Shown: positions 3,388 through 46,045 of the stretch, piece by piece
Layout of the letters: the number at the start of each line of letters is the position of its first letter
How positions within the stretch are numbered: the stretch's first letter is position 1
Source of the DNA: a virus
Taxonomy: Duplodnaviria > Heunggongvirae > Uroviricota > Caudoviricetes
Virus record (IMG/VR): IMGVR_UViG_3300037466_001997
Location: 1-64,000 of that record
Direction: 5' to 3' (one strand)
Length of the DNA: 64,000 nucleotides
Program-made: the position numbers and the translations under genes
Notes under the pieces: model-generated
The model's database searches: none
Seen by the model: the letters and a program-made list of their open reading frames with translations, nothing else
Told to the model about the DNA's origin: nothing

Positions 3388-3420
3388 TTAATGTGGCGAG
3401 ATTTCTCCCGCCACATTTTT
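3388..3420. terminator. hairpin terminator AATGTGGCGAGATTTCTCCCGCCACATT plus TTTTT; first copy of a duplicated terminator
   Basis: Perfect stem with T-run. 22-nt core is identical to the hairpin at 43925-43950. Confidence 0.5.
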
Positions 3421-4063
3421 AGTTGTTCACTACCAACTTTAAATCCGGAACATTTGAGTTTGCTGCCGGATTCTTCGGTTTCTGTATGATCAGTTTATCC
3501 TCTGTAAAGTGAGGTAGAAACTGAACCCATGACTCGTCGTCAATGATCATTGGATGCCGTGAACGGATATCCAACATCTGGTAGAACGTTGGTTCGAAAA
3601 TTTTCTTCTTCGGCTTCCAACGACCGACCGGCAACGAGTCCTTCTTGATGGCGTTACAATCCGCACAAGAAGCCACGATGTTTTCCCATTTCGTTGCACC
3701 ACCCTTAGAGATTGGTACAACATGGTCCCTTGTGACGCTGTTTGGCTGATGTTCCTTGGTAGTCAAAGGCATATCACACCAGAAGCACATACCGCCTTCA
3801 CGGTAGTACAGGGTATCGTCGGTCAGTTTGACCTTATCCATGAACTTTTTGCCATTTCCTCTACGGATGGCAACCACAGAAGGCCAGTAAAGATCGGTTC
3901 TTGATGGTGTTAAGATTGGTCGATCATAACAACTGACAATGTTGTATTTGCCAAGAAAATAGCCATGGATAGCCTTTGTCGCATTGACACAGGACAGCGG
4001 GAATACCGATTCCGGCATATAGTTCTTGTTCAATACCAGTGTACGCAACTCAATCTGTGACAC
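3419..4063 (-). CDS. HNH homing endonuclease
   Basis: RDHVVPISKGGATKWENIVASCADCNAIK is a canonical HNH motif. Confidence 0.75.
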   Translation of the reverse strand: MSQIELRTLVLNKNYMPESVFPLSCVNATKAIHGYFLGKYNIVSCYDRPILTPSRTDLYWPSVVAIRRGNGKKFMDKVKLTDDTLYYREGGMCFWCDMPLTTKEHQPNSVTRDHVVPISKGGATKWENIVASCADCNAIKKDSLPVGRWKPKKKIFEPTFYQMLDIRSRHPMIIDDESWVQFLPHFTEDKLIIQKPKNPAANSNVPDLKLVVNN

Positions 4064-12626: not shown

Positions 12627-12654
12627 ACATATGCTAGCTATTAGATAATGTCAA
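12627..12654 (-). promoter_or_regulatory. promoter-like TTGACA-16-TATGTA
   Basis: tacatatgctagctattagataatgtcaa. Confidence 0.4.
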
Positions 12655-13221
12655 GCCCATTCTAGCACGTGTTTCATCCATGGCGTTCATGGCCGATGTG
12701 AAAGCATATAGATTGTAGTTTGCCTTGTGCTTTTTGGCACTCTTGCTGGTTTTGCCGGTTTTCAGATTTTTATGTTCCCCGCCGTCAAGCACCCAGTAAG
12801 CCTCTGCCATCATATTCCAATATCTGCGACCACGCTTTTCGTGGCAAGTTCCGGTTTTAGCGAGAATGCCAAACTTGGAATTTAGATGATTTTTGACGAT
12901 TTCATGAAACAATTCGAATTCCTTGGAACCCCGCTTGTTGTTGCATCGGGCACAAGAGATTTTCAAATTGTCGAGAATGTCTTTCCCGCCATGGGATTTA
13001 GGAACAACATGTTCCCTTGTTGCCAGCAATCCACTGATGCAATGTGCGGAATCAAGAAACATTTTGCGTTTACAGAAGCAACATAAGCCTCTCTGTTGAA
13101 GGTATAGCCTTCTCTTACGCTTGTGCTTTCGAGCCTGTTTCTTGTCACCCTCGGCTCTTAACTGGGCAACTCTGGCTTTATTCGCTAGCAGGCTTTTCCG
13201 GTACGAAAACGGTTGGGTCAT
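12634..13221 (-). CDS. HNH homing endonuclease (track ORF 12634..13422; start probably internal at MTQPFSYRK)
   Basis: CCFCKRKM...REHVVPKSHGGKDILDNLKISCARCNNKRG is an HNH motif. Confidence 0.7.
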   Translation of the reverse strand: MTQPFSYRKSLLANKARVAQLRAEGDKKQARKHKRKRRLYLQQRGLCCFCKRKMFLDSAHCISGLLATREHVVPKSHGGKDILDNLKISCARCNNKRGSKEFELFHEIVKNHLNSKFGILAKTGTCHEKRGRRYWNMMAEAYWVLDGGEHKNLKTGKTSKSAKKHKANYNLYAFTSAMNAMDETRARMGLTLSNS

Positions 13222-13531
13222 TATCGCTCTGTTTATATCGCATAAAATGTAGGATAGCTTTGGTCGGCTGAATACCAAAATGAGTGTCGAATTTACCTCT
13301 GGCCCGGAATACTTGTTGCAATGTCGATAGTGAGTTTCTGTCGTTGGTGTCTTGCCAGAGCGCTTCAATGGCCTTGTCCAAGAGCGCATTAAAATCTGAT
13401 GTGATGGCAGCGTACCGATCATTATCAGTTACGTCACTGACCATGGCCCAATACTCTGCTTCTGCCTTTTGCACTTCCGGCAAAATGGCTAGCGTATGTT
13501 CCCAAGTCAACTCTCTTACCATCATGTTCAT
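13178..13531 (-). CDS. hypothetical protein
   Basis: 117-aa ORF. Confidence 0.55.
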   Translation of the reverse strand: MNMMVRELTWEHTLAILPEVQKAEAEYWAMVSDVTDNDRYAAITSDFNALLDKAIEALWQDTNDRNSLSTLQQVFRARGKFDTHFGIQPTKAILHFMRYKQSDNDPTVFVPEKPASE

Positions 13532-14146: not shown

Positions 14147-14764
14147 CTATGTTCTATTTTTAATTTGTTCAATAGCGGAATGAAGTGGACTACTCTTGCC
14201 AATGATATCCCAATGATCAAGATTGGCAGTGCGCCACGATTTAAATTTGTTGTTGGCGCTCAAACCATCGGTAATTCCTCTACCCATGGCACGGATAGAG
14301 TTTTCAGGTGAAATGCCACCAACACCAGTTCCCATTCCCGAGAAACAGATTGAAACGATACCTTGCCACACAGCCTCACGGATTGCGGCACGTGTCGCTA
14401 GATAGACATTAGAGGCATCCGGCAAACGCATTGGAACACGCATGGTTGGTGCTACAACTAGATAGGGAATTGTTTTGTGGGTTGATTCCACGACCAATGC
14501 ATTCCCCACCAGCAATTCATTGAATTCCGTACATGCTGCGATTCCGTCCTGTACAATGTTTTGGATGTTTGGCATGTTTTCGGCAAAGTGATAATCAATA
14601 CCACCATCCATGAAGCCGAAGCTGTTGGCCGGGCTAACAACGGCATCAACCGGCGTATCCAAGGGAGAACCGATCCCTATATCAACTTCGGCTTTAAGGA
14701 AATCTTCGTTTGTTGCCGCTCTATCAACCAATGCCTGATTGCGATCACGAAAATAAATTTTCAT
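14147..14764 (-). CDS. macro domain protein (ADP-ribose binding/processing)
   Basis: VVSPANSFGFMDGGID and CFSGMGTGVGGISPE match the macrodomain NAAN..GGGVD and G-I-Y-G signature regions. Confidence 0.7.
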   Translation of the reverse strand: MKIYFRDRNQALVDRAATNEDFLKAEVDIGIGSPLDTPVDAVVSPANSFGFMDGGIDYHFAENMPNIQNIVQDGIAACTEFNELLVGNALVVESTHKTIPYLVVAPTMRVPMRLPDASNVYLATRAAIREAVWQGIVSICFSGMGTGVGGISPENSIRAMGRGITDGLSANNKFKSWRTANLDHWDIIGKSSPLHSAIEQIKNRT

Positions 14765-14962
14765 TTAATACCTTGGATAAAAAGATTGCATTGAAATGGG
14801 TGCACCCACGATCATTGTACAGCGGATGCAATGGTGAAGGTCTTCTTCATGGGAATATAAAGAAGCCGGGATAAAACTATTCGACGTTTTTGAAGATGGC
14901 CGCATGAACTTACCGCAATTGTGGCACTGAATCTGGTTAGAACACCGAATAAAACGACGCAT
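14765..14962 (-). CDS. small Cys-containing ORF, possible zinc ribbon (CHNCGKF...CIRC)
   Basis: 65-aa ORF; weak support. Confidence 0.3.
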   Translation of the reverse strand: MRRFIRCSNQIQCHNCGKFMRPSSKTSNSFIPASLYSHEEDLHHCIRCTMIVGAPISMQSFYPRY

Positions 14963-15043
14963 TTAGAAAAACTCCTGCTTTTAGTGGAAGCAAGAGTAGA
15001 TCATATAGATACTTATGTCAAGTTGTATTTTTGCACTATACTT

Positions 15044-15553
15044 TTATACATCTAGATCAATTATGTTATTATGTTTGATATTGAAGATATCTAGAGCTTT
15101 AAAATATTCTTTGATAGTCAAACCATCGTCATATTTCGTCAGAATCAAACGTTCATTGCTGAATGTGAAGGCGAAATCGTCAAAACAAATCCAGTCGCAT
15201 TCTTCATCCCGAGCAAGGTTCCCGGCAATCCACTCATTGATGGCATCATACCGGTTTCCCCAGTCCACCTTGCCATATGTGGTGCGCCAGTTTTTGTGGA
15301 ACAGTTCCTCTGGAAACCCAGAATTGATCATGGCTGAACGAAGGCTGGAAGCCGGAAAATGTGGGTAGCCTTCGTCTTCCAAATAATTGTGGCTGGTATT
15401 CATCACCACCTTGGAACCCGTCTTCTTGGCGAGATTTGCCAAGATGGCCAGAGCCGATGGTGAGAAAACACGCTTGAAGGCGGCGTTACGGTCTACAAAA
15501 AACATCGATCCGGGGATAAGCACCCCGTCAACGTCACAAAAAATAATTCTCAT
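15044..15553 (-). CDS. HAD-superfamily hydrolase (phosphatase/nucleotidase)
   Basis: MRIIFCDVDGVL motif I. Start at internal ATG with GGAAAAG RBS. Confidence 0.65.
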   Translation of the reverse strand: MRIIFCDVDGVLIPGSMFFVDRNAAFKRVFSPSALAILANLAKKTGSKVVMNTSHNYLEDEGYPHFPASSLRSAMINSGFPEELFHKNWRTTYGKVDWGNRYDAINEWIAGNLARDEECDWICFDDFAFTFSNERLILTKYDDGLTIKEYFKALDIFNIKHNNIIDLDV

Positions 15554-15791
15554 CACTTTTCCATCTTTCCTTCCATGCTTCCTCATCAATCCGCTGTGAA
15601 ATCAAAAGGGCTTCCACTGCGGCTTGTGCGCATTCTTTTTCATAGTCAGTGTTAGGGAAAATTTTCCCCGCTCTATAGCATGTTTCGACTCGATCAGTGG
15701 CGATATCGAAACATCGCTTGCGTTCATCGGCAACACCTTTGTCATATGCGCTTTGTGTCAATTTAACTAAATCAGACTCTTTTTCAGTCAT
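15534..15791 (-). CDS. hypothetical protein, 85 aa
   Basis: ORF. Confidence 0.5.
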   Translation of the reverse strand: MTEKESDLVKLTQSAYDKGVADERKRCFDIATDRVETCYRAGKIFPNTDYEKECAQAAVEALLISQRIDEEAWKERWKSDENYFL

Positions 15792-16258
15792 GCGAACATC
15801 CTAATTTCATGGCGTTCTGCCATTATAATTTTTCCGAGTTTATTCTTGCCAACACCATTGCAGACTCCCCAATAGGTGTCGCCCCATGTGTTGCCTTCAA
15901 TCAATTCGGCATCGTCGGTTGCCAGAAGCTTTTCCCGCATATCGGGAGCTTTGTATTTTATCTTTGTGAGACGTGCCATAACAGGGTCTCTGATTATGTC
16001 CCAGTTTCGACGAAGCTCAATCGTCTGGCCCCACGCTTTAACCTCTGATGGTTTAGCGTGTAGAAACGGAACATCGCCCCTTTTGAACGTCTTCACCGTC
16101 ATGTATTTGACTAGATGCAGCGTGACTTCGGCATTTGGCAGTTTATAGAACTGGTAGCCATGCTCCACCGTTGGCCAGATGACTTCACCATCTGGTACGG
16201 GCGAATACCAGAAATTGGATAGCCAGCGATATTCGCCGGAAAAACTATCAATCTTCAT
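15788..16258 (-). CDS. NADAR (YbiA/DUF1768) domain protein
   Basis: FSGEYRWLSNF...VEHGYQ...GDTYWGVCNGVGKNKLGKIIM matches NADAR family hallmarks. Confidence 0.75.
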   Translation of the reverse strand: MKIDSFSGEYRWLSNFWYSPVPDGEVIWPTVEHGYQFYKLPNAEVTLHLVKYMTVKTFKRGDVPFLHAKPSEVKAWGQTIELRRNWDIIRDPVMARLTKIKYKAPDMREKLLATDDAELIEGNTWGDTYWGVCNGVGKNKLGKIIMAERHEIRMFA

Positions 16259-17466
16259 GCGTCAGCCATGGTGTTGGTTTCGTCGGCGTTTCCGTGGAAC
16301 CAATGGGTAGCAGTTCGAACATGGTCCGCCCGCACATACTTCCCGACATTATTACGAAAATCTCGCCAACCGAAATTCCTCCGGTTTCGCATAACGAATC
16401 CTTCAACTCGTTCTGTGTCCATATTTTTAATGATGTCTTGGACGACTCGTTCGTCATAAATTCCCTCATACAGGACAGGCACTGATTTGATTCCGAGTAA
16501 GTTGAACCACTCTATCGTGTCGTCCCACGACAAGCATTCCAGACCATTCCAGACCGAAAAACCAAGGAAAAAAGAAGGAAGATTTCCATAGGCTATCGAG
16601 TGTTTGGCAAACAAATTTTCACCACAAACCCGCCAGTCTTCCGGCAAGTCATATGCAAAATTCTGTGCAAAATTTTTCGCCCAATCCCGTGACCAATGAT
16701 TGCGGCCATCGATGGAACGGGCGTGTAGATAACCATCCGAATAGATCGTTGTGTTTTCGCCGTCCATCTTTTCAGTGATAACCACTTGATTTCCCTCGAA
16801 AATCTGCATCGAAGAAATCATGCGGTCATCATCATTCATGCCGGGCGAAAACGGCAGATGGTAGGTTCTCGGATATTTCATGCGGTTGGTGTATAGGTCG
16901 AGAACACCACCTTCCCGCAAAATTTTTTGAACTGATTCGTCGCTGAACAATTCGCCACGGAGTCGCTGTCCGTTCTCTAGGACTATATCACCCCATTTGG
17001 TGTACACGACATCGGAATAGAAATGTTCGGGCAGGACCGGTTTGGTGATACCGGCATATTCACGAATTTGCTCTACCGATATAAGGGTCTTCTCGCACTC
17101 GATATGGTGAACACCGCAAACGGTAGCGCCATTGTCAAGGTAATAACCGCCATCAGCGAAAAGCCTTCGCTCTAGGATGTGATGTGCGTCTTGACCAACA
17201 CCACCACACACGACACATGCATGACGGTCCCTCGCAAAAACGCCTTCACGGAATTCATCCCTTGTTAACAGCTTTGACATGACTTTATCCAAAATAGATG
17301 GAAGGCGGATTTCTAGCGAATCAGAATGCCATCCTATCGCCGTACTTTCCGCCTTCCACTTCTTGTACTGGCATGTACAAGAAGGTTCTTTCGAGGAACG
17401 ATAAATCACCCACGACTCTATGTAGTGCCATGAGAGACATGGACATGTGTCGAACCCTCTAGACAA
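16255..17466 (-). CDS. fusion protein: N-terminal Cys cluster, HNH nuclease motif, ligase/capping-type nucleotidyltransferase domain (motif I KMDGEN)
   Basis: HACVVCGGVGQDAHHILER...CGVHH is HNH. KYPRTYHLPFSPG and TEKMDGENTTIY are the NTase motif I region. Track start is TTG; first in-frame ATG (MSKLLTRDEF) lies at about 17280. Confidence 0.55.
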   Translation of the reverse strand: MSRGFDTCPCLSWHYIESWVIYRSSKEPSCTCQYKKWKAESTAIGWHSDSLEIRLPSILDKVMSKLLTRDEFREGVFARDRHACVVCGGVGQDAHHILERRLFADGGYYLDNGATVCGVHHIECEKTLISVEQIREYAGITKPVLPEHFYSDVVYTKWGDIVLENGQRLRGELFSDESVQKILREGGVLDLYTNRMKYPRTYHLPFSPGMNDDDRMISSMQIFEGNQVVITEKMDGENTTIYSDGYLHARSIDGRNHWSRDWAKNFAQNFAYDLPEDWRVCGENLFAKHSIAYGNLPSFFLGFSVWNGLECLSWDDTIEWFNLLGIKSVPVLYEGIYDERVVQDIIKNMDTERVEGFVMRNRRNFGWRDFRNNVGKYVRADHVRTATHWFHGNADETNTMADA

Positions 17467-17513: not shown

Positions 17514-17993
17514 TTAATAAGAAGTCAAGGGCTTAATTTTCTTCAATTGTTCAAGACTGGATTTGGCGCTGGTGTGAACAATGAAGATACCGCCTGCATC
17601 TTCCCACAATTTTTGATATTTGGTTCTGTCATCGATCAGAACATCACCCGGTAAGCAATACAGATGCTTTTCCTTGGCCTTGGTGACTACCATCGGCACA
17701 GAAGGTATCCACAGATGACCCCATTTCCATTTCTGGATATCAGCCCAGTGGACAGGGGAGCCGGTTAGGATAGCCGGATCATATCCGTTGGCTTTCAGAC
17801 CATCTATCAGGTCCAGCGCATCAGGCATCAGTTCCAAGCGTTCGAAGAAATAAGGATCGACTTGGCGAACCTTCTCCCACAGCTTTTCTTTGCCTAGCTG
17901 TTCCCGCATGGTGTGTGGGTCTTTATCAAAAACCCAGAACCACCGCTTATTGAAATCCGCTACGACTCCATCGGAGTCAACATATATTCTCAC
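17514..17993 (-). CDS. 5'(3')-deoxyribonucleotidase-like HAD enzyme (NT5C family)
   Basis: MRIYVDSDGVVADF motif I, size 159 aa. Confidence 0.7.
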   Translation of the reverse strand: MRIYVDSDGVVADFNKRWFWVFDKDPHTMREQLGKEKLWEKVRQVDPYFFERLELMPDALDLIDGLKANGYDPAILTGSPVHWADIQKWKWGHLWIPSVPMVVTKAKEKHLYCLPGDVLIDDRTKYQKLWEDAGGIFIVHTSAKSSLEQLKKIKPLTSY

Positions 17994-18354: not shown

Positions 18355-18446
18355 TGGCGGAAGCGGTTGGATTTGAACCAACGGAACTTTTGAGGGTTCG
18401 CCTGTTTTCGAGACAGGTACAATAAACCAGACTCTGCCACGCTTCC
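18355..18446 (-). tRNA. tRNA-Ser (anticodon CGA), type II
   Basis: Acceptor GGAAGCG/CGCTTCC, anticodon stem CCTGT/ACAGG, loop CTCGAAA, long variable arm, T-arm GGTTCAAATCC, CCA encoded. Confidence 0.65.
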
Positions 18447-18453
18447 TAAACTT

Positions 18454-18531
18454 TGGTGCCGCCCCACGGGATCGAACCGATGAACCTTCTGTGCTTCAAA
18501 CAGATGTGCAGACCAACTACACCAAGGCGGC
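18454..18531 (-). tRNA. tRNA-Phe (anticodon GAA)
   Basis: Acceptor GCCGCCT/GGGCGGC, loop TTGAAGC. T-stem is imperfect in manual fold. Confidence 0.55.
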
Positions 18532-18589
18532 AGGCGTGTTATCAGCATCAAACACAGTAGCTCACCACTAAACTAGGTGACAGTAACTT

Positions 18590-18665
18590 TGGTGCCGGTT
18601 GCAGGAATCGAACCCACGACATCCTGATTACAAAACAGGCGCTCTACCGTCTGAGCTAAACCGGC
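18590..18665 (-). tRNA. tRNA-Thr (anticodon UGU)
   Basis: Acceptor GCCGGTT/AACCGGC, D-arm TAGCTCAGACGGTAGAGC, loop TTTGTAA with U-U at 31-39. Confidence 0.55.
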
Positions 18666-18764: not shown

Positions 18765-19333
18765 TTAGTTCTTGCCGTGTCCGTTGCCGCCAGCGTTGCC
18801 ACCAGCGTTGCCACCGTGCGATGGGCCGGGAGCGCCATCGTGGTTTCCACCAGCGTTTTCAGCGTTGTTGTGATCTTCCGAATGGCCCGGCGCATTCTGA
18901 TCACCATTGCCATAACCATTGTTGTTGTGGCCGGTATCTCCACCGGAGCCACCACCATTGTTGTGGCCGGTATCTCCACCGGAGCCACCACCATCACCAC
19001 CAGAGCCATCGCCGCCGCCATCGGAACCACCACCGCCGTCACCACCGCCAGAGTCGCCTCCACCAGAGCTTCCGCCACCGCCGCCAGTGTTTCCACCGCC
19101 ACCACCAGTGTTTCCACCGCCACCACCAGTGTTTCCACCGCCACCACCAGTGTTGCCACCGGAATGATCGGAAACAGAATGCGTGTTGTTAGCGCCGCAT
19201 TGGGTCCAGATTGTTGATTGTGTGGTATTGTATTCACAATGTCGGAATGGTGCCGCATGAGCGACCCCATAGCCGTTCGAAAGAAGGATCAGCACAGATG
19301 CACTGGCCCTTAGCGCTAGATATAGATTTTTCA
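18765..19333 (-). CDS. secreted glycine-rich tandem-repeat protein (signal peptide, then GGNTGGGGG repeats)
   Basis: MKNLYLALRASASVLILLSNGYGVAHA is a signal peptide. Four or more exact 18-nt tandem repeats encode NTGGGG. ATG at 19333 follows AAGGGG RBS; track TTG extension overlaps the promoter. Confidence 0.55.
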
Positions 19334-19372
19334 TCCAAAGCACCCCTTGTGCGTTGCCTAAGTTACCACTCA

Positions 19373-19400
19373 CATATAAGTGATTCCTACGGAAAGTCAA
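19373..19400 (-). promoter_or_regulatory. promoter TTGACT-16-TATATG
   Basis: catataagtgattcctacggaaagtcaa. Confidence 0.4.
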
Positions 19401-20524: not shown

Positions 20525-20660
20525 CTACTTGCCACTTCAAATCGATTTCTTCATCGATCTTGACGGCTGTCATGCTCCAAACATTGAACTTTCCATCGTG
20601 ACGTTCTGCAATGTCCATTGGAAGGTTGTCTGTAAACCAATTTGATTGAATGTTACTCAT
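20472..20660 (-). CDS. hypothetical protein, 62 aa
   Basis: ORF. Confidence 0.45.
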   Translation of the reverse strand: MSNIQSNWFTDNLPMDIAERHDGKFNVWSMTAVKIDEEIDLKWQVVGVFHTKEEAEEFVSNA

Positions 20661-21859
20661 TGGTATTCGGTAGTCTCGCCTTTTCTATTCAGATAATCTT
20701 CGGATACGTATTTTAGAATGATACGACCCAGTTCAGGATGACTTCCCTCATGCGAGGGAGTCGCTACCAGACCTTCACGGATGTTCGAACCTTCACCCAA
20801 ACTGGTGCGGCCATCAATGTAGGGCAGGATTTCGTCTTCTTTTTCCACCACGGCTATGACGGGCACCGTCTGGAAATTGGCATTCTCTAAAAATTCATAT
20901 TTGCCTAGGGCGAACACATATTCGCCACCGAATTTCACGTCAAAGGCACGGAATTCCGGCTTTTCCAGACCGTAATGCAAATCCTGAACGCCCTTGCCGA
21001 AAATTTCACCGAAAACATAATATTTTTTCTCACGCTCTATGTTTTCGGAGTACATGGAAATTTCGGTAATCAGATACGCCAGCTTTTCAAATAGCTTGTT
21101 TTCCATGACCGTGCGAACATAGAGATTGTTCCTGATGTTGCCTTGGTTATGTTTGAACACCAATCCCTTGGCACCCAGACCTTTGGAAAATACGATGAAT
21201 GAACCATCAAAATCCGGTAGCGTGAATAGTTCCGGATGTTTGAAACCCTGAACGAACCCGATGCCGCAAAACGTGCCATGCAGCTTTTCTGTCAGAAAAA
21301 TGGAACGGCCTGTGCCATTCAACACACCCGGAAATTTTTTGGCATTCTCGATATCGTAGTGACCAATCTTGTCCTGTCCGATGTACAGAAGATCGCCAGC
21401 CATGTTGGCCGGAAGAACCGGTTCATATTTCGTGATACCAAGGAATTCCGAGACATCATCACCCAGACAGAAACAATCGGTGTCCGTCTCATTCTGGACG
21501 ATGCAATCCATTTCGAAATAATCAACATTCCGAATGGTCGGGTGACCAAACATGATGCCTTCGGAAGTGATGCCACGCAATTTGATTGGCTTCACTCTAT
21601 CGCCATGTTTACCAGAAAGAATGCCCATGCCCTTGTTATCATCCCAGAAACCTTGTCTTAGAAGATATTCCGGAACGATAGAGTCGGACTGAACATAGAT
21701 TACCCAGTCGTTCTTTTTGTAGCGATGCGAGCCGTCTTCAAGTTTGGCGGATACAATCTTGTAGTCGTATCCTTTGAGCTTGACGATTGACAGACGGTCG
21801 GCGTTAGGGTGGTCGGTAGATGACTCCACCGCCATAATACGAGATTCAAATTTTGACAC
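20657..21859 (-). CDS. ATP-dependent RNA ligase (Rnl2/Rnl5-like motifs) with N-terminal OB/tRNA-binding-like domain
   Basis: Motif I KLHGTF, motif III FGEIFGKG, motif IV REGLV, motif V ILKYV. N-terminal HPNADRLSIVKL resembles the Myf/EMAP tRNA-binding fold. Confidence 0.6.
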   Translation of the reverse strand: MSKFESRIMAVESSTDHPNADRLSIVKLKGYDYKIVSAKLEDGSHRYKKNDWVIYVQSDSIVPEYLLRQGFWDDNKGMGILSGKHGDRVKPIKLRGITSEGIMFGHPTIRNVDYFEMDCIVQNETDTDCFCLGDDVSEFLGITKYEPVLPANMAGDLLYIGQDKIGHYDIENAKKFPGVLNGTGRSIFLTEKLHGTFCGIGFVQGFKHPELFTLPDFDGSFIVFSKGLGAKGLVFKHNQGNIRNNLYVRTVMENKLFEKLAYLITEISMYSENIEREKKYYVFGEIFGKGVQDLHYGLEKPEFRAFDVKFGGEYVFALGKYEFLENANFQTVPVIAVVEKEDEILPYIDGRTSLGEGSNIREGLVATPSHEGSHPELGRIILKYVSEDYLNRKGETTEYQ

Positions 21860-22634: not shown

Positions 22635-23690
22635 CTAGTATTTAGGCGTCGGGATCATGTTCTGAATTATACGCTCTGCCTGTGTTTGACGAACATCAAA
22701 ATCCGCATTTAGGATGCATTCGAAGTTCTTGCCGTATTCCTTTAACTTGCCGACAAGCTTGTCATAGAATTGCCAGCGAGTTTCTTCCACTTCCATAACA
22801 CGAAATCCATCCTGAATCCATGGTACAGATGGGGCTAGAACAATGTATTTGTCGATATGTTGTTCTTTTGCAACATCATAGAATTCCGAATTATCTTCAC
22901 CCGGAAACCAGATATCGGCATACATGGCAGTAATCAGCGCTTCCGTGTCCGAGACGATGATTGGAAAATTTGCGTTTTCCTTCGTCTGGTCAATCAGGAA
23001 TTGCTGTGTGCGCTGGATAATCCGGAAGTCTTCCCGGTCCAGTTCGTTCTTGCGATTCACAGACAGGATGCGACCGTATTCGGGGAGTGTGTCATAGAGC
23101 TTGGACAGCTTCTTGATCATGGTGGACTTGCCACAGGATTCCGGCCCGACAATCGCCACCGTCTGCACCAAGTCGTGCTTGGTGTATTCGGGCAGAGATT
23201 TGAACATGGAATAAAAATTATTTCGGACCATCGTGCCCGAAATCGACTTCATTTCCCTGTCCGGATCAACCGGAACCCAACGTGCGTGAAGCTCTTTGGC
23301 GATACGTTCACCGTAAAGATCGGATGTGAACACAATATCGATTTTTTCGAGCGTTGATGGCCCAAATTCATTGGTCAAAATTTCACGAGTGGAGGCAAGC
23401 CAAGCCTGCCAATATGATTCATCCGTGATTGTACCGTTTTCATCCTTGTCGGCGTGTTTGTCCAATTCCGGCTGTGGTAAAATGAACAGGGTACAAAATT
23501 CTTCCTGTTCGCCAATTGCCTTTTCAACCCATTCTTTTCTTTGTTCGAAAGAGAACGGATCATCTGGCGTTGTGCCAATCAGCACAATCAATTCATCGCA
23601 GTTTTTGGCGGCAACTTTAAGCAGAAGTTCATGCCCCTTATGCAGGGGCAAAAACTTTCCTAGCGTAAAACCAGTTCTATAATAATCCAC
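22635..23690 (-). CDS. nadR: NadR-like bifunctional NMN adenylyltransferase / ribosylnicotinamide kinase (no HTH domain)
   Basis: N-terminal GFTLGKFLPLHKGHELLL (HxGH nucleotidyltransferase); C-terminal VAIVGPESCGKSTM Walker A. Confidence 0.75.
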   Translation of the reverse strand: MDYYRTGFTLGKFLPLHKGHELLLKVAAKNCDELIVLIGTTPDDPFSFEQRKEWVEKAIGEQEEFCTLFILPQPELDKHADKDENGTITDESYWQAWLASTREILTNEFGPSTLEKIDIVFTSDLYGERIAKELHARWVPVDPDREMKSISGTMVRNNFYSMFKSLPEYTKHDLVQTVAIVGPESCGKSTMIKKLSKLYDTLPEYGRILSVNRKNELDREDFRIIQRTQQFLIDQTKENANFPIIVSDTEALITAMYADIWFPGEDNSEFYDVAKEQHIDKYIVLAPSVPWIQDGFRVMEVEETRWQFYDKLVGKLKEYGKNFECILNADFDVRQTQAERIIQNMIPTPKY

Positions 23691-23692
23691 AA

Positions 23693-24412
23693 TTACCGTC
23701 CGTAATGAATGGGTTCAGCTTTCCGCTGTCTATCGAGATACCAGAGGGTATAACCATAGACCACGTTACACAGGAACAAGGCGTACTGTGCGGCCCATAG
23801 GAAGAAGCCTGACTTGTAGTACACATAGACCGAAATCACGTTCACAGCGGCCCAGAATACCCAACTGATAGGCTTTTTCTGGTTACATAGATACTGTGCA
23901 ATGATTGACAGCATCAGAATGCCGACATCGAACGTTGTGTAGGAGGATTGGAAGTAATTGTACACCTGAACGATGATATACCACGATACAACACCAACAA
24001 TGGCCATCATGATATATTCGAATGGTTCAAGCGTTCGTGAAACTGGAAGATCGGTTCTGCCTTCGCCACCAAATTTCCAGTTATACCAACCCACGAATTG
24101 TGCCGGGATAAAGTATGCCCATTGCAGGGTCATTGAGGCTTTCAGATTGCCATGATAGGCGAGCGCACCAAGGAAGACAACGGCAACGATGCCGAGCGGC
24201 CAATTGGCGTTCTTCTGTCTCGATACGAGATACACACAGGCATAGTTCAGGACCACGCCAATGACTTCCACACCTAGCCAGAGTGGTGAGTCGGTATAGG
24301 CTTTTGCGAAATCCCACCAACCAAATTCTTGGCCGACGAAATAACTTGCGAATGTCAGCACTATACCGACAAGAAGACCCTCACAGGTATCGAGAAAAAA
24401 TTTCATTATCAA
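23693..24412 (-). CDS. pnuC: PnuC-like nicotinamide riboside transporter
   Basis: 239-aa multi-TM protein with Trp-rich helices immediately upstream of nadR (classic pnuC-nadR pairing). Confidence 0.6.
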   Translation of the reverse strand: MIMKFFLDTCEGLLVGIVLTFASYFVGQEFGWWDFAKAYTDSPLWLGVEVIGVVLNYACVYLVSRQKNANWPLGIVAVVFLGALAYHGNLKASMTLQWAYFIPAQFVGWYNWKFGGEGRTDLPVSRTLEPFEYIMMAIVGVVSWYIIVQVYNYFQSSYTTFDVGILMLSIIAQYLCNQKKPISWVFWAAVNVISVYVYYKSGFFLWAAQYALFLCNVVYGYTLWYLDRQRKAEPIHYGR

Positions 24413-24463: not shown

Positions 24464-24910
24464 TCAAGGGTAAAGATTGAATGTTCCCGTGATGGAAGTC
24501 ACATCAAACTTGTTCTTGTCCCCAAATACAAAGCCTGTGGTAACGAGTGGAACAAGATGTGTGATTGAACCATCCTTAACCGGATAGGAAGGATCAAGGA
24601 TGGCACCATAGACAATCGGACGACTGTCTTCCCAGTTGAAGCGATGATCGCCTTGCTCGATATTCAGCTTTTCCAGCACATAGGCTGGCACTTCAAGTGT
24701 GATCGTGACGCCGAAACCACGGTCGCCAGCCCAATCAGCCCAAAGTTCCCGTAGCTTGGTAAAGCGCTTGGAATCGGGACCATTGGCGATGAAGGTCTGT
24801 GCGGCATTGGCAGCGTGTGCCGCCTGTGCCGCCAGCTTGCCCGGATTAAGCGATTCTAGATCGTTTCGAGCAAGAATATACAGATATGGTTGCGGCAATC
24901 TTTTTGTCAT
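24464..24910 (-). CDS. peptidyl-tRNA hydrolase, PTH2 family
   Basis: LNPGKLAAQAAHAANAA motif, size 148 aa. Confidence 0.7.
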   Translation of the reverse strand: MTKRLPQPYLYILARNDLESLNPGKLAAQAAHAANAAQTFIANGPDSKRFTKLRELWADWAGDRGFGVTITLEVPAYVLEKLNIEQGDHRFNWEDSRPIVYGAILDPSYPVKDGSITHLVPLVTTGFVFGDKNKFDVTSITGTFNLYP

Positions 24911-26342: not shown

Positions 26343-27281
26343 TTACGAAAAAGTTGAAGTTTCTGTGTTTGCCGAAACTTCTGGTGCTGCGGCAGGAACA
26401 GTGATCTTCACAACCGGAACCATAGCAGTACCATCCCACTGTGTCAATACACCAGCGATGTGTCCTTCCACAGAAGGAACGGCAGATGCATCAACAGTTG
26501 TTTCATCAACAACTTCTGATGTGTGTGCTGGTGTGTAATCCACAGGTGTTACAGGAACAACCGGTGCTGGTGTTGGTTCAGCTACAGGCGCTGGCGCTTC
26601 CACAGGTGCTGGCGCATCGACCGGAGCCGGATCAGCAACTACAGGGGCGTCAACTGGTGCCGGTGCTGGTGCGTCAACCGGAGCTTCCACAGGGGCAGGG
26701 TCCGCAACTACCGGCGCATCAACTGGCGCAGGCGCATCAACTGGTGTTTCAGGTGCTGGCGCTGGTGCGTCAACAACTGGTGTTTCGACCGGTGCCGGTG
26801 TTTCTGGGGCAGGGTCTGCTACAGGCGCTGGTGCATCAACTGGTGCTGGTGCTGGTGCATCAACTGGGGCTGGTGTTTCTACCGGAGCCGGGTCAGCAAC
26901 TACAGGGGCAGGATCAGCAACTGGGGCAGGATCAGCGGCTGGCGCTGGTGTTTCTGCCGGTGCAGGATCAGCTACGGGTGCCGGGTCAGCGGCTGGCGCT
27001 GGTGTAGGGTCTACAGGTTCTGGGGCTGGCGCTGGTGCGTCTTCCACAGGTGTTGGTGCAGGCTCTGCCGGTGTTTCTACCGGTGCCGGTGCATCTTGTG
27101 CTGGCGCTGGTGCGTCTACCGGTGCTGGTGCATCGACAGGGGTTTCTACTGGTGCTGGTGCGTCAACTGGCGCAACAACTTCGTCAGCGAAGAATTTTTC
27201 AATATCTTCGACTACTTCTTTTTCGATTTCTTCGAATTTTTCAACGATATCATCGATGATTTCTTTTGGGTTCTTGGCCAA
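26343..27281 (-). CDS. Pro/Ala-rich tandem-repeat protein (DAPAPV/ETPAPV repeats) with ordered N- and C-terminal ends
   Basis: Over 200 aa of (D/E)(A/T)PAPV-type repeats; highly repetitive DNA. Confidence 0.5.
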   Translation of the reverse strand: MAKNPKEIIDDIVEKFEEIEKEVVEDIEKFFADEVVAPVDAPAPVETPVDAPAPVDAPAPAQDAPAPVETPAEPAPTPVEDAPAPAPEPVDPTPAPAADPAPVADPAPAETPAPAADPAPVADPAPVVADPAPVETPAPVDAPAPAPVDAPAPVADPAPETPAPVETPVVDAPAPAPETPVDAPAPVDAPVVADPAPVEAPVDAPAPAPVDAPVVADPAPVDAPAPVEAPAPVAEPTPAPVVPVTPVDYTPAHTSEVVDETTVDASAVPSVEGHIAGVLTQWDGTAMVPVVKITVPAAAPEVSANTETSTFS

Positions 27282-30791: not shown

Positions 30792-31970
30792 CTACAGAGT
30801 GGCTATCAGATTGTCAATCCACTCTGAACGTCTTTTCTTAAGTTCTTTTCCCAGTTCTGGGCCGGGCTTAAAACCTTCTGTCATTAGATCACTAGCATTG
30901 ACTGGCCAAGGACGAATTTCCCAACTTGCTGTTTTGCCGGGGAAATCGGAAGTGAAAAATTTATCCCACTTTTCCCAATCCTTGGTTCTTTTCAGTTTAA
31001 CAAGGTCCATCACGAACATGCACAGGAAATCATTCTTGTAGCAGTGTGACAGGATTTCGAAATTTGTTGTTCTCGAATGGTTCATCATGAAATAGGTCTT
31101 GACAAACTCTATCTCATAGGATGGTGCACGAAACCGATTCGTCATCGCATTCAGGATACGATGTTCGTTGTAGTCAAACAGTGCAATCAGTTTCAGCATC
31201 CACCATTCCTCATGGTTGAAATCCTTCACCATGGGATGATGCGGCACCGGAATGCCCAGTTGCGGCCCGATGTAATTTACCAGAAGGCGAGCAATGGTGA
31301 TGCACTTTGGCTGTGACAGAATTTTGTGCAGTTCTGCCCAAATGCGTTCGCCGGAAATTTTATCCAGACCGTGGCAAGTATCCTGAATCACCTTCATGTT
31401 TGCGTCGAAGGTGGCATCAAAGTTCACTGTTTTCATGCGACCAAGGAAGCGAAAATAGCGAAGGATTCGCAGATAGTCTTCCTCGATACGATCACGGGCA
31501 TTGCCGACAAACCGCACAACGCAATTTTTCAGATCGTCCGCACCGTTGAAATAGTCATAGACCGTGCCATCCTTGTCCATGAACATGGCATTAAACGTGA
31601 AGTCACGCCGGGCTGCATCCAATTCCCAGTCAGTATGGAATTCGACTTCGGCGTGACGACCGTTCGTTTCCTTGTCGATTCGGAGAGTCGTGATTTCGAA
31701 TGGTTCACGGCCCACCATGACCGTAACCGTGCCATGTTGTAGGCCAGTCGGAATGACGTTATATCCAAGAGCTTCAAACTCCTGAATGGTCTGTCCCGGC
31801 CTTGCCGTAGTGGCAATGTCTATGTCTTTTGGGTCTTTGCCAAGTAGAAAGTCACGAACAGCACCACCAGCGATGCGAGCTTCGAAGCCTGCATCCTCTA
31901 GAATCGTCATAACTTTCGTGGCGTTCTCATTCATATTATCTGAAATACCAAAAGAAATAGGAAATGTCAA
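30792..31970 (-). CDS. cca: tRNA nucleotidyltransferase (CCA-adding enzyme), class II
   Basis: GGAVRDFLLGKDPKDIDIATTARP head motif plus HD-like body, 392 aa. Confidence 0.8.
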   Translation of the reverse strand: MTFPISFGISDNMNENATKVMTILEDAGFEARIAGGAVRDFLLGKDPKDIDIATTARPGQTIQEFEALGYNVIPTGLQHGTVTVMVGREPFEITTLRIDKETNGRHAEVEFHTDWELDAARRDFTFNAMFMDKDGTVYDYFNGADDLKNCVVRFVGNARDRIEEDYLRILRYFRFLGRMKTVNFDATFDANMKVIQDTCHGLDKISGERIWAELHKILSQPKCITIARLLVNYIGPQLGIPVPHHPMVKDFNHEEWWMLKLIALFDYNEHRILNAMTNRFRAPSYEIEFVKTYFMMNHSRTTNFEILSHCYKNDFLCMFVMDLVKLKRTKDWEKWDKFFTSDFPGKTASWEIRPWPVNASDLMTEGFKPGPELGKELKKRRSEWIDNLIATL

Positions 31971-33209: not shown

Positions 33210-33710
33210 TCAAAGTCCCTGTAGAAAATCCGATAGATTCTTTCTATCGGTATCGTTGAAAAGATTGTAGATAGGAATTTCTTTTTCCATGGCCAGACGC
33301 ATGGCTTGACCGGTTCCACCAGAAGCCTTGCCGTCAGAAGTCCAGCATATGACAAATTTTACTGGAATTTGCAAGCCTTTTCCTAAGATTTGATGGCAGT
33401 TTCGAGCATGTAGCTTTCTGGCACCCTCTTTTAAATTTCTCCAATTTGGGTGAAGGCGCTTTGCCAGAATATAAGCGTCGTCTTCAATGGGAAGAAATGG
33501 AACAGTGGAATTGTTGAAACCCGGCCATGGTAGCCAAATTTCCTTCAAACCGCCAGCACCCTTTTCGAAAGCCATATCGGCACCATCGGCACCGCCCGAG
33601 CGTAAAATATATTTTTTTGTTCTAAGAAAAGATGCAATGCGTGTAAATTGCTGACAGATGGGTTCGGGAGTCTCTCGACTCCCTATTCCCGCATAATATT
33701 CATTCTGCAA
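33210..33710 (-). CDS. DprA/Smf-like Rossmann-fold (SLOG superfamily) protein
   Basis: YAGIGSRETP...ILRSGGADGADMAFEKGA pattern. Confidence 0.5.
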   Translation of the reverse strand: MQNEYYAGIGSRETPEPICQQFTRIASFLRTKKYILRSGGADGADMAFEKGAGGLKEIWLPWPGFNNSTVPFLPIEDDAYILAKRLHPNWRNLKEGARKLHARNCHQILGKGLQIPVKFVICWTSDGKASGGTGQAMRLAMEKEIPIYNLFNDTDRKNLSDFLQGL

Positions 33711-36759: not shown

Positions 36760-36788
36760 AATATAATCGAAATCTAGAGAATGTCAAC
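36760..36788 (-). promoter_or_regulatory. sigma70-like promoter TTGACA-17-TATATT (cassette copy, overlaps stop of the HD-domain gene)
   Basis: catttacgaatataatcgaaatctagagaatgtcaa. Confidence 0.55.
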
Positions 36789-37247
36789 AGCTTTTAATGC
36801 GGTATCGATTTTATGGTAGGTTTTAACGTATTTTTCTATACGTTTCATATCCTTATCGGTCACGCCTTTGAGCCTGCGAAGGTCCATATTATGACGAAGA
36901 TCGATCTTTTTCGCCCGCATGGCATCGATGTTTCCCATAATTCCATCGATATATTCATCATATGGAATTTCTTTTTTTCTGGTGAGAAGTCGAACCGCCG
37001 TGATGATTCGTGGTGTCATACCGATAGCATGAAGCGCTGCAAACCCGGCTTCATGGTCGTTCGGGAAACAATCCTCCACCACATCATGAAGAACGGCGAT
37101 TGCCATCAATTCTTCGTCATCGGTTTTCATAAGGTACATGACCTTCAACGGATGAAGAATATAGGCATGGCCAGCTTTGTCGAACTGGCCATAATGATGC
37201 TTGACGGCGAACGCCAGAGCGTTTGATAAAATTTCTTGTTTTTTCAA
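36774..37247 (-). CDS. small alarmone hydrolase: SpoT/RelA-type HD domain, (p)ppGpp hydrolase-like
   Basis: HHYGQFDKAGHAYILHP...AIAVLHDVVED matches the RelA/SpoT HD hydrolase signature. Confidence 0.7.
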   Translation of the reverse strand: MKKQEILSNALAFAVKHHYGQFDKAGHAYILHPLKVMYLMKTDDEELMAIAVLHDVVEDCFPNDHEAGFAALHAIGMTPRIITAVRLLTRKKEIPYDEYIDGIMGNIDAMRAKKIDLRHNMDLRRLKGVTDKDMKRIEKYVKTYHKIDTALKAVDIL

Positions 37248-39469: not shown

Positions 39470-39928
39470 TTAGACATAATATGCGAATTTTCTGGAAACG
39501 TCAACAGATTTTTGAAGGATTCCAATGGTTAAATGAAATTTTTCGAAATCCGGTAGACCCAGAGATTTACGAATTTCTCGAATGTCATCGGAGTACACGT
39601 CGATGAACCAAAACAATCCTTTTTTCCGTTCCCAATTTTCGGTAGGATTGGGGATTGGGTTATCGCCAGAATATCGAATCAATCCTTCGTAGTGGAAGGT
39701 GATTTCCTTTTTGTCGAATTCCATTGGAACAAATGGATTAATTTTGGAAATCGTGATGTGCGCATTCCAAGATGGTTTCAACAATCCGATGTGGAGCGCC
39801 TGATTGGCGACATGCCGATAATACCGGGCAAGTTCTTCGTCCGCTGTAGCGGTGATCAAACAAGTCGTCTCGGAATTAATTTTTATAGGATTGGGAATGA
39901 CGTGAACCGTCGCTGTGGATGTAAACAT
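39470..39928 (-). CDS. 2H phosphoesterase superfamily protein (LigT/CPDase-like)
   Basis: Two HxT/S motifs, AHITISK and FHLTIGI, at the expected spacing. Confidence 0.65.
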   Translation of the reverse strand: MFTSTATVHVIPNPIKINSETTCLITATADEELARYYRHVANQALHIGLLKPSWNAHITISKINPFVPMEFDKKEITFHYEGLIRYSGDNPIPNPTENWERKKGLFWFIDVYSDDIREIRKSLGLPDFEKFHLTIGILQKSVDVSRKFAYYV

Positions 39929-44671: not shown

Positions 44672-44709
44672 AGACAAAAATAAAGGGAGGGGCTAGATTC
44701 ACCCCTCCC
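44672..44709 (-). terminator. strong rho-independent terminator at the 3' end of the ORF-free transcript
   Basis: GGGAGGGG-TGAATCTAG-CCCCTCCC followed by TTTATTTTTG on minus strand. Confidence 0.6.
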
Positions 44710-46045
44710 GTGACAGTCTTTGATTGGATTATGGTTTGGGTGCTAGCCAAACTTTCCCAACGTATCCACTTCCTTTTGGGAAGTAACTGCTAAGACTTCT
44801 TTGTATTCGACATTTGCAACTTACTCGGCACATTCTTTTCTGAATGAACTAGCTAGGCTCACACTAGAACTTCCTGTACCAAACCAACGTACCTTGCGGG
44901 CTTGCTGGCACCAGATTACCTTTCGGTTCTGGCATTAAGTCCCTTCGTTGCAAACCGGAACGGTCTTTGCGTTTTTTGTGACATCGCAGGAATTGCACCT
45001 ACACTGTCAGCTCCTGAAAGCTGATGCCCTACTATTAGGCAAGATGAACCCACTAAGACGTGCCGTTCCAGTTGTTTCATTACCTTTTGGGTAACGAAAT
45101 GCAACACGCCTCTTGCTTTCGACTTGCGGTCTACTCACCGATTTTCAGGATTCTGTCCCTTTCGGTCCAGTGCCCTTCATTCTGGATATAGCTCTTGCCT
45201 GCCGGGCTTGAACCATATTCCTATACGTTGACATTCGCCCCTCTGTTAGTTGCATTGGCTGCATTGGATTTGCGGTCCAATTTAGGTGGCAATGCTTATC
45301 CACCATATCGCCCTTTCGGGGACGACAACCTCTAACATTAAGGACTAGCTCCGGTTCCACCGAAGCACCCTCGACAAGGGTTAGTCCGTACTTGCTTGGC
45401 TTCATCCATCTTGCGATGAACGGGGAGTCTTATGGGAAGAACATCCCTCTGCTACCGGTTGCCCGATGCAGTGCCCCAAGCGGCAATTCGTTAAACTGGC
45501 TACCGGGGTTGGATTCGATACCAACATACACCCTCTAAACGAGGGTGGCTTTAACTTAAGCTACCCGATAATAGAACTTTCAGGACAGGTGTCTTATCCG
45601 TTTGACGGGATTGTTAGACGACGATGTTTTTCGACGTGGACCGATTAGGGACGAACCTTTGTCTCTACCAGCATCTACTTATCGGATGGACATTTAAGCC
45701 TAGTTGTTCTTTTCAATGGGTTCCAACGCCACTGCTAGTTTACAACACTCATTTCCTGTTATCAGTTTGGGAAAGGAACTTGGTGAAGTTCATTACCGAA
45801 GCTGATTTTTGTACTCTACTCTTTTATATATCTCCTGTCAACACTTTTTTTCGTTTTCTTCGAACTTTTTCTAAGGAACTACCGAAAGAATTTCGAACTT
45901 CTTTCCCCCTGTTCCCCGCTCACTTCCGAACGCCAGAAATGAACTGTTCAAACGATACCTTTATGATCTATTATCGGTTCAAAAAGGTTGTCAAGCCTTT
46001 TCTTTGGGGATATAGACTGTGGTTGACCGCCACCGGTTCGTTGTT
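44710..46045 (-). ncRNA. candidate large (~1.3 kb) structured noncoding RNA with its own promoter and terminator
   Basis: No ORF of convincing quality in any frame over 1.35 kb in an otherwise gene-dense genome. Consensus promoter at 46050-46078 and terminator at 44672-44709 on the minus strand. Several GAAA-loop hairpins, e.g. ACC-GAAA-GGT. Confidence 0.45.

Follow-up and report, generated by a model that had tools for sequence, protein, structure and literature searches.

In phage T4, Pnkp and the RNA ligases Rnl1 and Rnl2 mend tRNA that has been cut by the anticodon nuclease PrrC. In 2016, Burroughs and Aravind reportedly described phage and cellular RNA-repair systems that carry Swiss Army Knife (SAK) HAD or 2H domains, with a KptA-2H-Macro branch. 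The subject of the present analysis is a cluster of six genes in a 64,000-nucleotide stretch of a Caudoviricetes genome (positions 1 to 64,000 of the IMG/VR virus record IMGVR_UViG_3300037466_001997; the whole stretch is called the window below). The cluster is compact and lies on one strand, from 17277 down to 14147, with overlapping or abutting junctions. Its order is HNH-RNA ligase, NADAR, an 85-residue open reading frame (ORF), a SAK-family HAD phosphatase, a 65-residue Zn-ribbon ORF (Zn ORF), and Macro (Table 1). The reading that I favour, at about an even chance of being right, is that the cluster is an operon for the repair of RNA, chiefly tRNA, in which Macro and NADAR would handle ADP-ribose by-products or adducts.

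The logic shared with the T4 system is the use of a HAD-type 3'-phosphatase and an ATP-dependent RNA ligase for cut tRNA. Unlike the T4 set, the cluster has no kinase domain, its ligase belongs to a different family (with no PDB relative by profile), and two ADP-ribose-processing enzymes are added. Compared with the SAK HAD/2H systems and their KptA-2H-Macro branch, a PF09414 HNH-fused ligase, a stand-alone SAK HAD, Macro, and NADAR are found here in one neighbourhood, and the setting is likewise a tRNA-rich large phage (PMC7824862, PMC9503650), whereas neither KptA nor a kinase turned up in the 64-kb window. Every part of the cluster belongs to a described kind of family. Bioinformatic work has already predicted that Macro and NADAR associate with RNA ligases, SAK HAD/2H domains, and KptA (PMC9503650, PMC7824862), and phage NADAR and macro counter-defences against DarT have been published (PMC11825919, PMC13309987). 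In the literature, I found no description of the specific ligase-NADAR-HAD-Macro operon, of a NADAR fused to a tRNA-binding domain, or of the tight pairing of this Macro family with KptA, the latter two of which are presented below. To my knowledge, the order ligase-NADAR-HAD-Macro with two small conserved ORFs has not been described before.

Domains and packing of the cluster

The initial annotation recognized a macrodomain protein, a HAD phosphatase, and a NADAR protein in the window. The three minus-strand ORFs are present exactly where it placed them (14147-14764, 15044-15589, and 15788-16258), and all three domain identities are supported by scores above Pfam's curated thresholds, far beyond chance. 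The Macro ORF matched PF01661 (E 5.7e-11, 42.8 bits, cut-off 22), the HAD ORF matched PF18143 HAD_SAK_2 (E 1.3e-13, 51.9 bits, cut-off 27.5), and the NADAR ORF matched PF08719 (E 3.3e-16, 60.4 bits, cut-off 35.1). Catalytic-type residues are also present in Macro (N47, D57) and in NADAR (E32, K39, E121), so that neither the profile matches nor the catalytic residues speak against the two assignments. PHROG families without assigned function match the Macro, HAD, and NADAR ORFs. The HAD gene does lie between Macro and NADAR as described, but three ORFs (the 65-residue ORF, HAD, and the 85-residue ORF) intervene instead of one. What had been overlooked is the RNA-repair context, namely the SAK type of the HAD protein and the RNA ligase gene at the head of the cluster.

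The ligase matched Pfam RNA_ligase PF09414 with an E-value of 1.1e-31 and phrog_24030 'RNA ligase' with an E-value of 3.8e-134, while HNH phrogs also matched. It has 340 residues when read from the ATG at 17277; the mechanical ORF extends to a TTG at 17466, and the start was placed by means of the homologue in the comparative locus L003, whose N-terminus is MSKLLTRDEF. In an alignment of 35 sequences, the ligase motif K170-x-D-G and the HNH residues C21, C24, H32, H33, N49, and H58 are invariant. The single sequence had no match in the PDB, and with the profile of the 35 sequences only the HNH part was matched (it resembles the HNH of IscB), leaving the ligase part with no detectable relative of solved structure. 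The family is a large one, with more than 150 relatives in IMG/VR (loci L006-L085 among them).

PF18143 is defined in Pfam as 'HAD domain in Swiss Army Knife RNA repair proteins'. The HAD protein has the nucleophile motif DxD (D19-V-D21), and its true start is probably the ATG at 15553 or at 15586. It is conserved in the comparative loci L001-L003, and the same HAD family is found beside NADAR in L051 and L225. The 65-residue Cys-rich ORF is conserved in L001-L003 and L007, and the 85-residue ORF had no match in Pfam or PHROG.

The ligase and NADAR genes overlap by 4 nucleotides, NADAR and the 85-residue ORF overlap by 4 nucleotides, and the Zn ORF abuts Macro. Part of the cluster looks translationally coupled. 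A gene for an NT5C-like HAD protein lies directly upstream of the cluster, as it does upstream of the ligase in L003 and L007, and is possibly in the same transcription unit. A promoter and terminator scan gave no firm operon boundaries; the count of promoter-like sites was no better than in shuffled sequence.

Macro, NADAR, and the DarT-directed erasers

The AF2 model of Macro has a pLDDT of 91 and matched more than 100 macro structures in Foldseek at E<=1e-3. The family comprises 5506 homologues, which are stand-alone proteins of about 185-200 residues. N47 and D57 sit in the invariant motif SPANSFGFMDGGID, and the motif APTMRVP and a GMGTGxG loop are further invariant features. In 40 homologues, N47, G54, D57, G143, and G149 are invariant, while at least 90% of the sequences keep G55, G145, and G147. 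The ADP-ribose-binding motifs of Macro domains are present: the Asn before the Gly-rich loop, GG[VI]D, and the second Gly-rich phosphate loop.

Which macrodomains are closest to this family? With the family profile, the PDB matches were TTHA0132 (2dx6) at 3e-15 and yeast YMR087W/Ymx7 (1njr) at 2e-12. The latter is the second-best distinct match (only 2dx6 and one designed variant of 2dx6 precede it in the list), and its alignment spans the entire profile, N-terminal extension as well (profile positions 1-178). When the AF2 model was used in Foldseek, 1njr ranked first (E 2.7e-8) and 2dx6 third. As judged from profile and model, the closest characterised relative of Macro is the yeast tRNA-splicing ADP-ribose-1''-phosphatase. 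Both have the motif SP(A/G)NS-x-G-x-x-GG-x-D and, following strand 5, a PT motif, and the yeast protein is linked to tRNA ligation chemistry; identity is only about 19%, and the yeast protein is longer (284 residues). Pfam PF14519 (Macro_2) gave 20.4 bits with Macro against a cut-off of 27, and many close homologues carry a precomputed PF14519 match.

The initial annotation considered Macro a plausible eraser of thymidine ADP-ribose like the DarG antitoxin. The family profile matched DarG macrodomains at 3e-6 (M. tuberculosis) and 1.5e-4 (T. aquaticus), that is, about 10^9-fold more weakly than 2dx6 and about 10^6-fold more weakly than 1njr, and the DarG structures ranked 15 and 35 in Foldseek. 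The catalytic lysine of the DarG2/AdfM type is K80 in T. aquaticus DarG and K78 in PhiKZ AdfM. DarG sequences were recovered from the PDB search and aligned to the Macro family profile; Lys80 of DarG (FPTKKHW) falls opposite the invariant Met108 (APTMRVP). The Macro family also keeps an Asp of the MacroD/YMR087W type, in GG[IV]D, that is absent from DarG. In common with the DarG2 macrodomain and AdfM (PhiKZ gp104, PhiPA3 gp108), Macro has the fold and a conserved Asn equivalent to N22, but it has 205 residues and no C-terminal DarT-binding domain. The phage PhiPA3 encodes both types: gp271 (HQ630627.1, 246683-247060) is a Macro of the window type and is separate from gp108, which is a DarG2-like AdfM (PMC13309987). 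Since gp271 is encoded in addition to gp108, this suggests that the two macro types are not redundant.

Within 6 kb of the Macro homologues in 80 bacterial and archaeal genomes there is no NADAR, KptA, PF09414 ligase, or HAD_SAK_2, and the best 25 of 154 neighbour families include no DarT/DUF4433, ADP-ribosyltransferase (ART), or SIR2. They are stand-alone, housekeeping-like genes. A role of Macro as a toxin-antitoxin partner in cellular genomes was considered and rejected on the strength of these 80 neighbourhoods.

Because of the lysine-to-methionine change, the distant match to DarG, the separate paralogue in PhiPA3, and the absence of DarT among these 25 neighbour families, the DarG-like reading of Macro was abandoned. 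It is thus very unlikely that the cluster holds a pair of erasers in which NADAR reverses the guanine ADP-ribosylation of DarT1 and Macro reverses the thymidine ADP-ribosylation of DarT2, as had been proposed; the NADAR half of that proposal survives by homology. Speaking for such a pair, both proteins are present and, by the standards of their own families, appear catalytically intact, macrodomains countering DarTG2 are known from phages (AdfM, PMC13309987), and the PADLOC DarG profile matches Macro, although weakly (E 5.8e-5, 20.7 bits) and only in its macro part (profile positions 7-121 of 329). The fallback that had been offered, the processing of ADP-ribose or NAD+ breakdown products, is nearer to the RNA-repair reading than the pair of erasers is. 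Since the Macro of the window lacks the DarG catalytic lysine, phage macrodomains should not all be annotated as DarG-like counter-defence.

The best PDB match of NADAR is E. coli YbiA (2b3w, E 6e-13). E32, K39, E121, and D127 are invariant in the alignment. E32 and K39 are the catalytic Glu and Lys of the (S/T)xEHxxQxxK motif, and E121 is the acidic residue in the last strand; they correspond to E43, K50, and E125 in the Phytophthora enzyme, whose roles in activity have been described (PMC11543638). The best homologues in cultured phages are the NADARs of T5-like phages. The identity to bas32_0066 of the Escherichia phage IrisVonRoten is 42% (tblastn) to 46% (MAFFT) over 98% of the length. 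In work of 2025, bas32_0066 was identified as AdfN-Bas32, which neutralises DarT1 in uninfected cells without other phage factors, rescues three DarTG1-sensitive phages, and has no action against DarTG2 (PMC11825919). The two proteins have the same domain, length class, and E/K/E catalytic set, and neither has an N-terminal extension. They differ in an insertion of about 15 residues in the window NADAR and in their gene neighbours: the gene for the window NADAR overlaps that for an RNA ligase, and AdfN-Bas32 has genes for RNR, DHFR, thymidylate synthase, and RNase H around it.

By this homology, it is plausible that NADAR has the capability to reverse the guanine ADP-ribosylation of DarT1, as the initial annotation had it, an idea that is already in print. 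A possible though doubtful alternative to RNA repair is that NADAR is an orphan antitoxin of the AdfN type, stripping DarT1-made guanine ADP-ribose from phage DNA, and that its neighbourhood is incidental or a shared counter-defence island. In addition to the likeness to AdfN-Bas32 and the conserved E32, K39, and E121, a DarT1-NADAR system of Sinorhizobium fredii is among the constructs of an earlier study (PMC11543638), and the host of the window phage is probably alphaproteobacterial as well. Against this alternative, the NADAR gene overlaps both the RNA ligase and the 85-residue ORF, three independent NADAR lineages adjoin homologues of this ligase, and tRNA-binding domains are fused to NADAR or encoded next to it in phages that carry this Macro family (see below). 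The protein also differs from the DarT1-linked antitoxins. Its last strand has a Glu (LIEGN) as in YbiA, and not the Asp of these antitoxins or the His of T4 gp30.3 (PMC11125620). It starts at the core fold, without their basic N-terminal extension, which binds single-stranded DNA in DarG1. When some 120 ORFs of the window were surveyed with Pfam at E<=1e-4, no ART family was detected. The Asp, the extension, and the adjacent DarT1 of the DarG1 (BC4488) type are all absent.

Moreover, E. coli YbiA and the T4 NADAR hydrolyse ADP-ribosylated guanine in vitro but fail to protect cells from DarT1 (PMC11125620), so that competence in vitro does not fix the role of NADAR in vivo. It is known that NADARs remove ADP-ribose from guanosine in RNA but not from phosphate ends, while MacroD-type macrodomains do the reverse (PMC11833690), and that NADARs also remove it from cytidine (PMC12945103). 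RNA repair and its alternatives are not fully exclusive; a NADAR that acts on RNA could also protect DNA.

Recurrent linkages and the RNA-repair reading

The loci L001-L003 keep the order ligase, NADAR, homologue of the 85-residue ORF, HAD, Zn ORF, Macro, and GapR, with Macro identities of 60-79%. In L003, whose Macro identity is 60%, three additional small ORFs lie within the cluster. I surveyed 80 loci with homologues of the HNH-ligase: NADAR occurs within 10 kb in eight and HAD_SAK_2 in six. At least three NADAR lineages adjoin these ligase homologues. A NADAR of the window type does so in L007 and L051 (in L051, the order is ligase, HAD_SAK_2, NADAR), a different type in L049, and a type with an N-terminal extension in L022/L023.

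For the Macro family, 77 unrelated viral loci were surveyed. NADAR was found within 6 kb of Macro in 11 of them, in all 11 on the same strand and in 10 of the 11 upstream. By a crude estimate (from the reported frequency of NADAR in myoviruses and a 12-kb span of a 150-kb genome), about 2% would be expected by chance. In four distinct loci with NADAR upstream, a gene for KptA/Tpt1 (PF01885, E about 1e-50) lies 0.3-0.7 kb downstream of Macro (Table 1; L210 duplicates L208, and L223 and L224 duplicate L222). One of these, L214, encodes a fusion in which NADAR is followed by a tRNA-binding domain at the C-terminus (PF01588; 4483-5286), and free tRNA_bind ORFs are found beside NADAR or Macro in L228 (883-1230 and 3653-4009) and L236 (6970-7281). 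In L222, an ADP-ribosylglycohydrolase gene is located just upstream of NADAR. The trio of Macro, HAD, and NADAR recurs without the ligase in the unrelated contig L225 (4526-7754), where SmpB, the tmRNA partner, and a 205-residue ORF are followed on the same strand by contiguous Macro, HAD_SAK_2, and NADAR.

The phage contexts of the Macro family are otherwise diverse. In temperate enterobacterial phages, Macro lies between the genes for tail fibre (Collar) and tail-fibre assembly (Caudo_TAP), as seen in the viral loci L241-L248 and others and in Gifsy-1 and SEN4/SEN5, and it is sometimes annotated as a tail protein. The Macro neighbourhoods of PhiM12 and RHph_TM16 contain only hypothetical proteins. 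A single fixed phage context was rejected since neighbours range from tail-fibre to replication genes. The linkage of Macro and NADAR with RNA repair recurs and is of a specific kind without being a rule, because there are NADAR loci without Macro and many Macro loci in tail-fibre or replication regions.

From the domain identities, residue conservation, gene packing, synteny, and linkages across lineages observed here, I infer the following scheme of substrates, targets, and successive steps. Anticodon nucleases of the host or toxins directed at RNA would cut or modify tRNA. The HAD protein would strip 2'- or 3'-phosphates off the broken RNA end, and the ligase would seal the healed end. This part is modelled on the published RNA repair of jumbo phages, for which HNH-Rnl fusions and SAK HAD as the 3'- (linear) phosphatase have been described (PMC7824862). 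Where 2'-phosphates are removed by a KptA/Tpt1 that may be encoded by the host or outside the window, an ADP-ribose product would be left. Macro, as an Appr-1''-phosphatase type, may clear ADP-ribose-1''-phosphate, phosphate-linked ADP-ribose on RNA ends, or both, and NADAR may cut N-glycosidic bonds between ADP-ribose and bases on nucleic acid, as AdfN-Bas32 does at guanine in DNA and other NADARs do in RNA. The processing of KptA products by 2H and Macro has been described for jumbo phages (PMC7824862, PMC9503650). The role of Macro on such products is proposed because its nearest characterised relative is the tRNA-splicing Appr-1''-phosphatase and because its family is adjacent to KptA in other phages. 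The window also contains 22 tRNA genes, a second RNA ligase, a CCA-adding enzyme, PTH2, a weak 2H-SAK candidate, and NadR with PnuC, which support RNA repair.

A rather improbable variant is that the operon is a dedicated system for reversing the ADP-ribosylation of RNA, above all of tRNA, which would counter RNA-targeting ADP-ribosyltransferase defences or toxins. NADAR would then take base-linked ADP-ribose off tRNA (compare the fusion in L214) and Macro would take it off RNA phosphate ends, while HAD and the ligase would finish broken ends. If true, it would be the first physiological RNA-repair role for NADARs not linked to DarT. The only tested phage roles of such enzymes are directed against DarT1 (AdfN) and DarT2 (AdfM). 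With its linkages, the cluster offers a concrete, clonable test case for the long-standing prediction that NADAR and Macro serve RNA repair, given a NADAR gene that overlaps an RNA ligase gene, a NADAR fused to a tRNA-binding domain in a locus of related type, and a Macro family found beside KptA. Because of the operon, the fusion, and the Macro-KptA pairing, an RNA-directed function of NADAR becomes directly testable.

Several observations weigh against the RNA-repair reading. Of the NADAR homologues that have been tested, the closest one counters DarT1 by acting on DNA, and the genes around it serve nucleotide metabolism and not RNA repair. A Macro of the window type is missing from all of the 80 closest NADAR loci, and only eight of the 80 have a PF09414-type ligase. 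Most loci of the Macro family have unrelated neighbours, for example at tail-fibre 'moron' positions or in replication regions. Within the cluster itself, HAD and the Zn ORF are separated by a terminator-like hairpin (14997-14971). Neither KptA/Tpt1 nor a polynucleotide kinase was detected within the 64-kb window of the genome of about 196 kb, the survey of window ORFs having returned no PNK-type 5'-kinase family. The linkage could also arise from the pooling of accessory genes in tRNA-rich plastic regions.

Taken to its end, the last point means that there is no functional coupling and that independent accessory genes have gathered in a plastic, tRNA-rich early region. This is in keeping with the count of promoter-like sites and with the fact that most relatives of each gene occur without the others. 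Nevertheless, I consider it quite unlikely: the stop and start codons overlap, the gene order is kept at 60% identity despite insertions, the pairings recur in unrelated lineages and always on the same strand, and a fusion of NADAR with a tRNA_bind domain exists.

Surroundings of the cluster in the window

Megablast of the cluster against 50,697 phage records gave no match, and the phage is without a close cultured relative. An identical Macro protein is recorded on a 196-kb metagenomic contig. The best matches in cultured phages are to those of Rhizobium, Sinorhizobium, Rhodobacter, and Ochrobactrum, and genes for GapR and DUF1127 lie just downstream of the cluster; from these I infer an alphaproteobacterial host. 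All of the 22 tRNA genes in the window (ARAGORN; Rfam) are on the minus strand. The candidate 2H phosphoesterase listed in Table 1 has two H-x-T/S motifs, HITIS and HLTIG, as read from its translation. GroES and DNA ligases were also found in the Pfam survey.

Table 1. Coordinates of the cluster genes, of other features in the window, and of KptA/Tpt1 genes in four comparative loci
Feature	Sequence	Coordinates	Strand	Basis
HNH-like domain + RNA ligase, first gene of the cluster	window	16255..17277	-	PF09414, phrog_24030
NADAR (YbiA-fold) N-glycosidase, 156 aa	window	15788..16258	-	PF08719
Conserved 85-aa ORF	window	15534..15791	-	same-place homologues in L001, L002, L003
HAD-superfamily phosphatase, 'Swiss Army Knife' RNA-repair family, 181 aa	window	15044..15589	-	PF18143 HAD_SAK_2
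65-aa Cys-rich (zinc-ribbon-like) ORF	window	14765..14962	-	sub-threshold zinc-ribbon matches
Stand-alone Macro protein, YMR087W / Appr-1''-phosphatase-like, 205 aa	window	14147..14764	-	PF01661, AF2/Foldseek, PDB profile
NT5C-like HAD 5'(3')-deoxyribonucleotidase	window	17514..17993	-	PF06941 E 4.6e-9; phrog_2643
Three tRNA genes (Ser-CGA, Phe, Thr), just upstream of the cluster	window	18355..18665	-	ARAGORN; Rfam
Second RNA ligase, DraRnl/DRB0094 type, N-terminal OB domain	window	20657..21859	-	PF09414 E 1.4e-13; PHA02142 OB; TIGR02306 E 4e-35
NadR-like NMN adenylyltransferase/ribosylnicotinamide kinase + PnuC	window	22635..24412	-	CTP_transf_like + AAA_28; NMN_transporter E 1.6e-35
PTH2 peptidyl-tRNA hydrolase	window	24464-24910	-	
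CCA-adding enzyme / tRNA nucleotidyltransferase	window	30792..31970	-	PolyA_pol head domain E 1.5e-33
Candidate 2H phosphoesterase	window	39470..39928	-	PF22547 2H-SAK E 1.4e-4, 22.6 bits, below cut-off 27
KptA/Tpt1	L208	7242-7775		PF01885
KptA/Tpt1	L214	6886-7425		PF01885
KptA/Tpt1	L222	7329-7880		PF01885
KptA/Tpt1	L228	5954-6490		PF01885

A two-gene pair of NadR and PnuC was described in August 2026 as NARP3, an NAD+-rebuilding counter-defence of Enterobacteriaceae phages (PMC13464706). The pair in the window is of the NARP3 type, here in a phage with a probable alphaproteobacterial host. It lies 6.4 kb upstream of the cluster, and it may be asked whether Macro and NADAR, perhaps with HAD, work alongside it by degrading soluble ADP-ribose-derived immune signals or toxic metabolites of NADase, TIR, or SIR2 defences, with the ligase being separate. 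Iyer et al. proposed such degradation as the main role of phage Macro and NADAR proteins and reported that the two co-occur in viral genomes above chance (PMC9503650). One locus of the Macro family adjoins a Tad2-like (anti-Thoeris) gene, and the stand-alone, housekeeping-like state of the cellular homologues also agrees with this idea. It is unlikely all the same, for it leaves unexplained the overlap of the NADAR and RNA ligase genes, the SAK-family HAD inside the cluster, and the linkages to KptA and tRNA-binding domains in other phages.

Other features of the window were noted in passing. A full-length GOLLD RNA is present at 44689-45112 on the minus strand (Rfam RF02032, E 1e-42; its 158.8 bits exceed the gathering score of 150), with a tRNA-like element at 44977-45049 inside it that was not called by ARAGORN. 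GOLLD is a large, ornate non-coding RNA, here located in a tRNA-rich phage region. The minus-strand ORF at 18765-19400 begins with a stretch resembling a signal peptide and continues with long Gly-rich GGGNTGGGG-type repeats, because of which all six frames are open there; it is conserved in the related contig L003 (676-1398). Another repeat protein of 312 residues (26343-27281, minus strand) consists largely of Pro/Ala/Val/Asp repeats (APAPVDAPAPV...) and received no family assignment. Also on the minus strand are a weak SLOG/DprA-like ORF with GIGSRxTP...SGGAxGAD (33210-33710), an HD_4 ORF resembling RelA/SpoT-type hydrolases (36774-37247), and a minimal ligase-like ORF of 186 residues that scores below the DNA_ligase_A_M threshold (60244-60804). 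Besides the HNH domain of the ligase, there are at least three free-standing HNH endonuclease genes, at 12634-13422 and 3419-4063 on the minus strand and at 48301-48741 on the plus strand.

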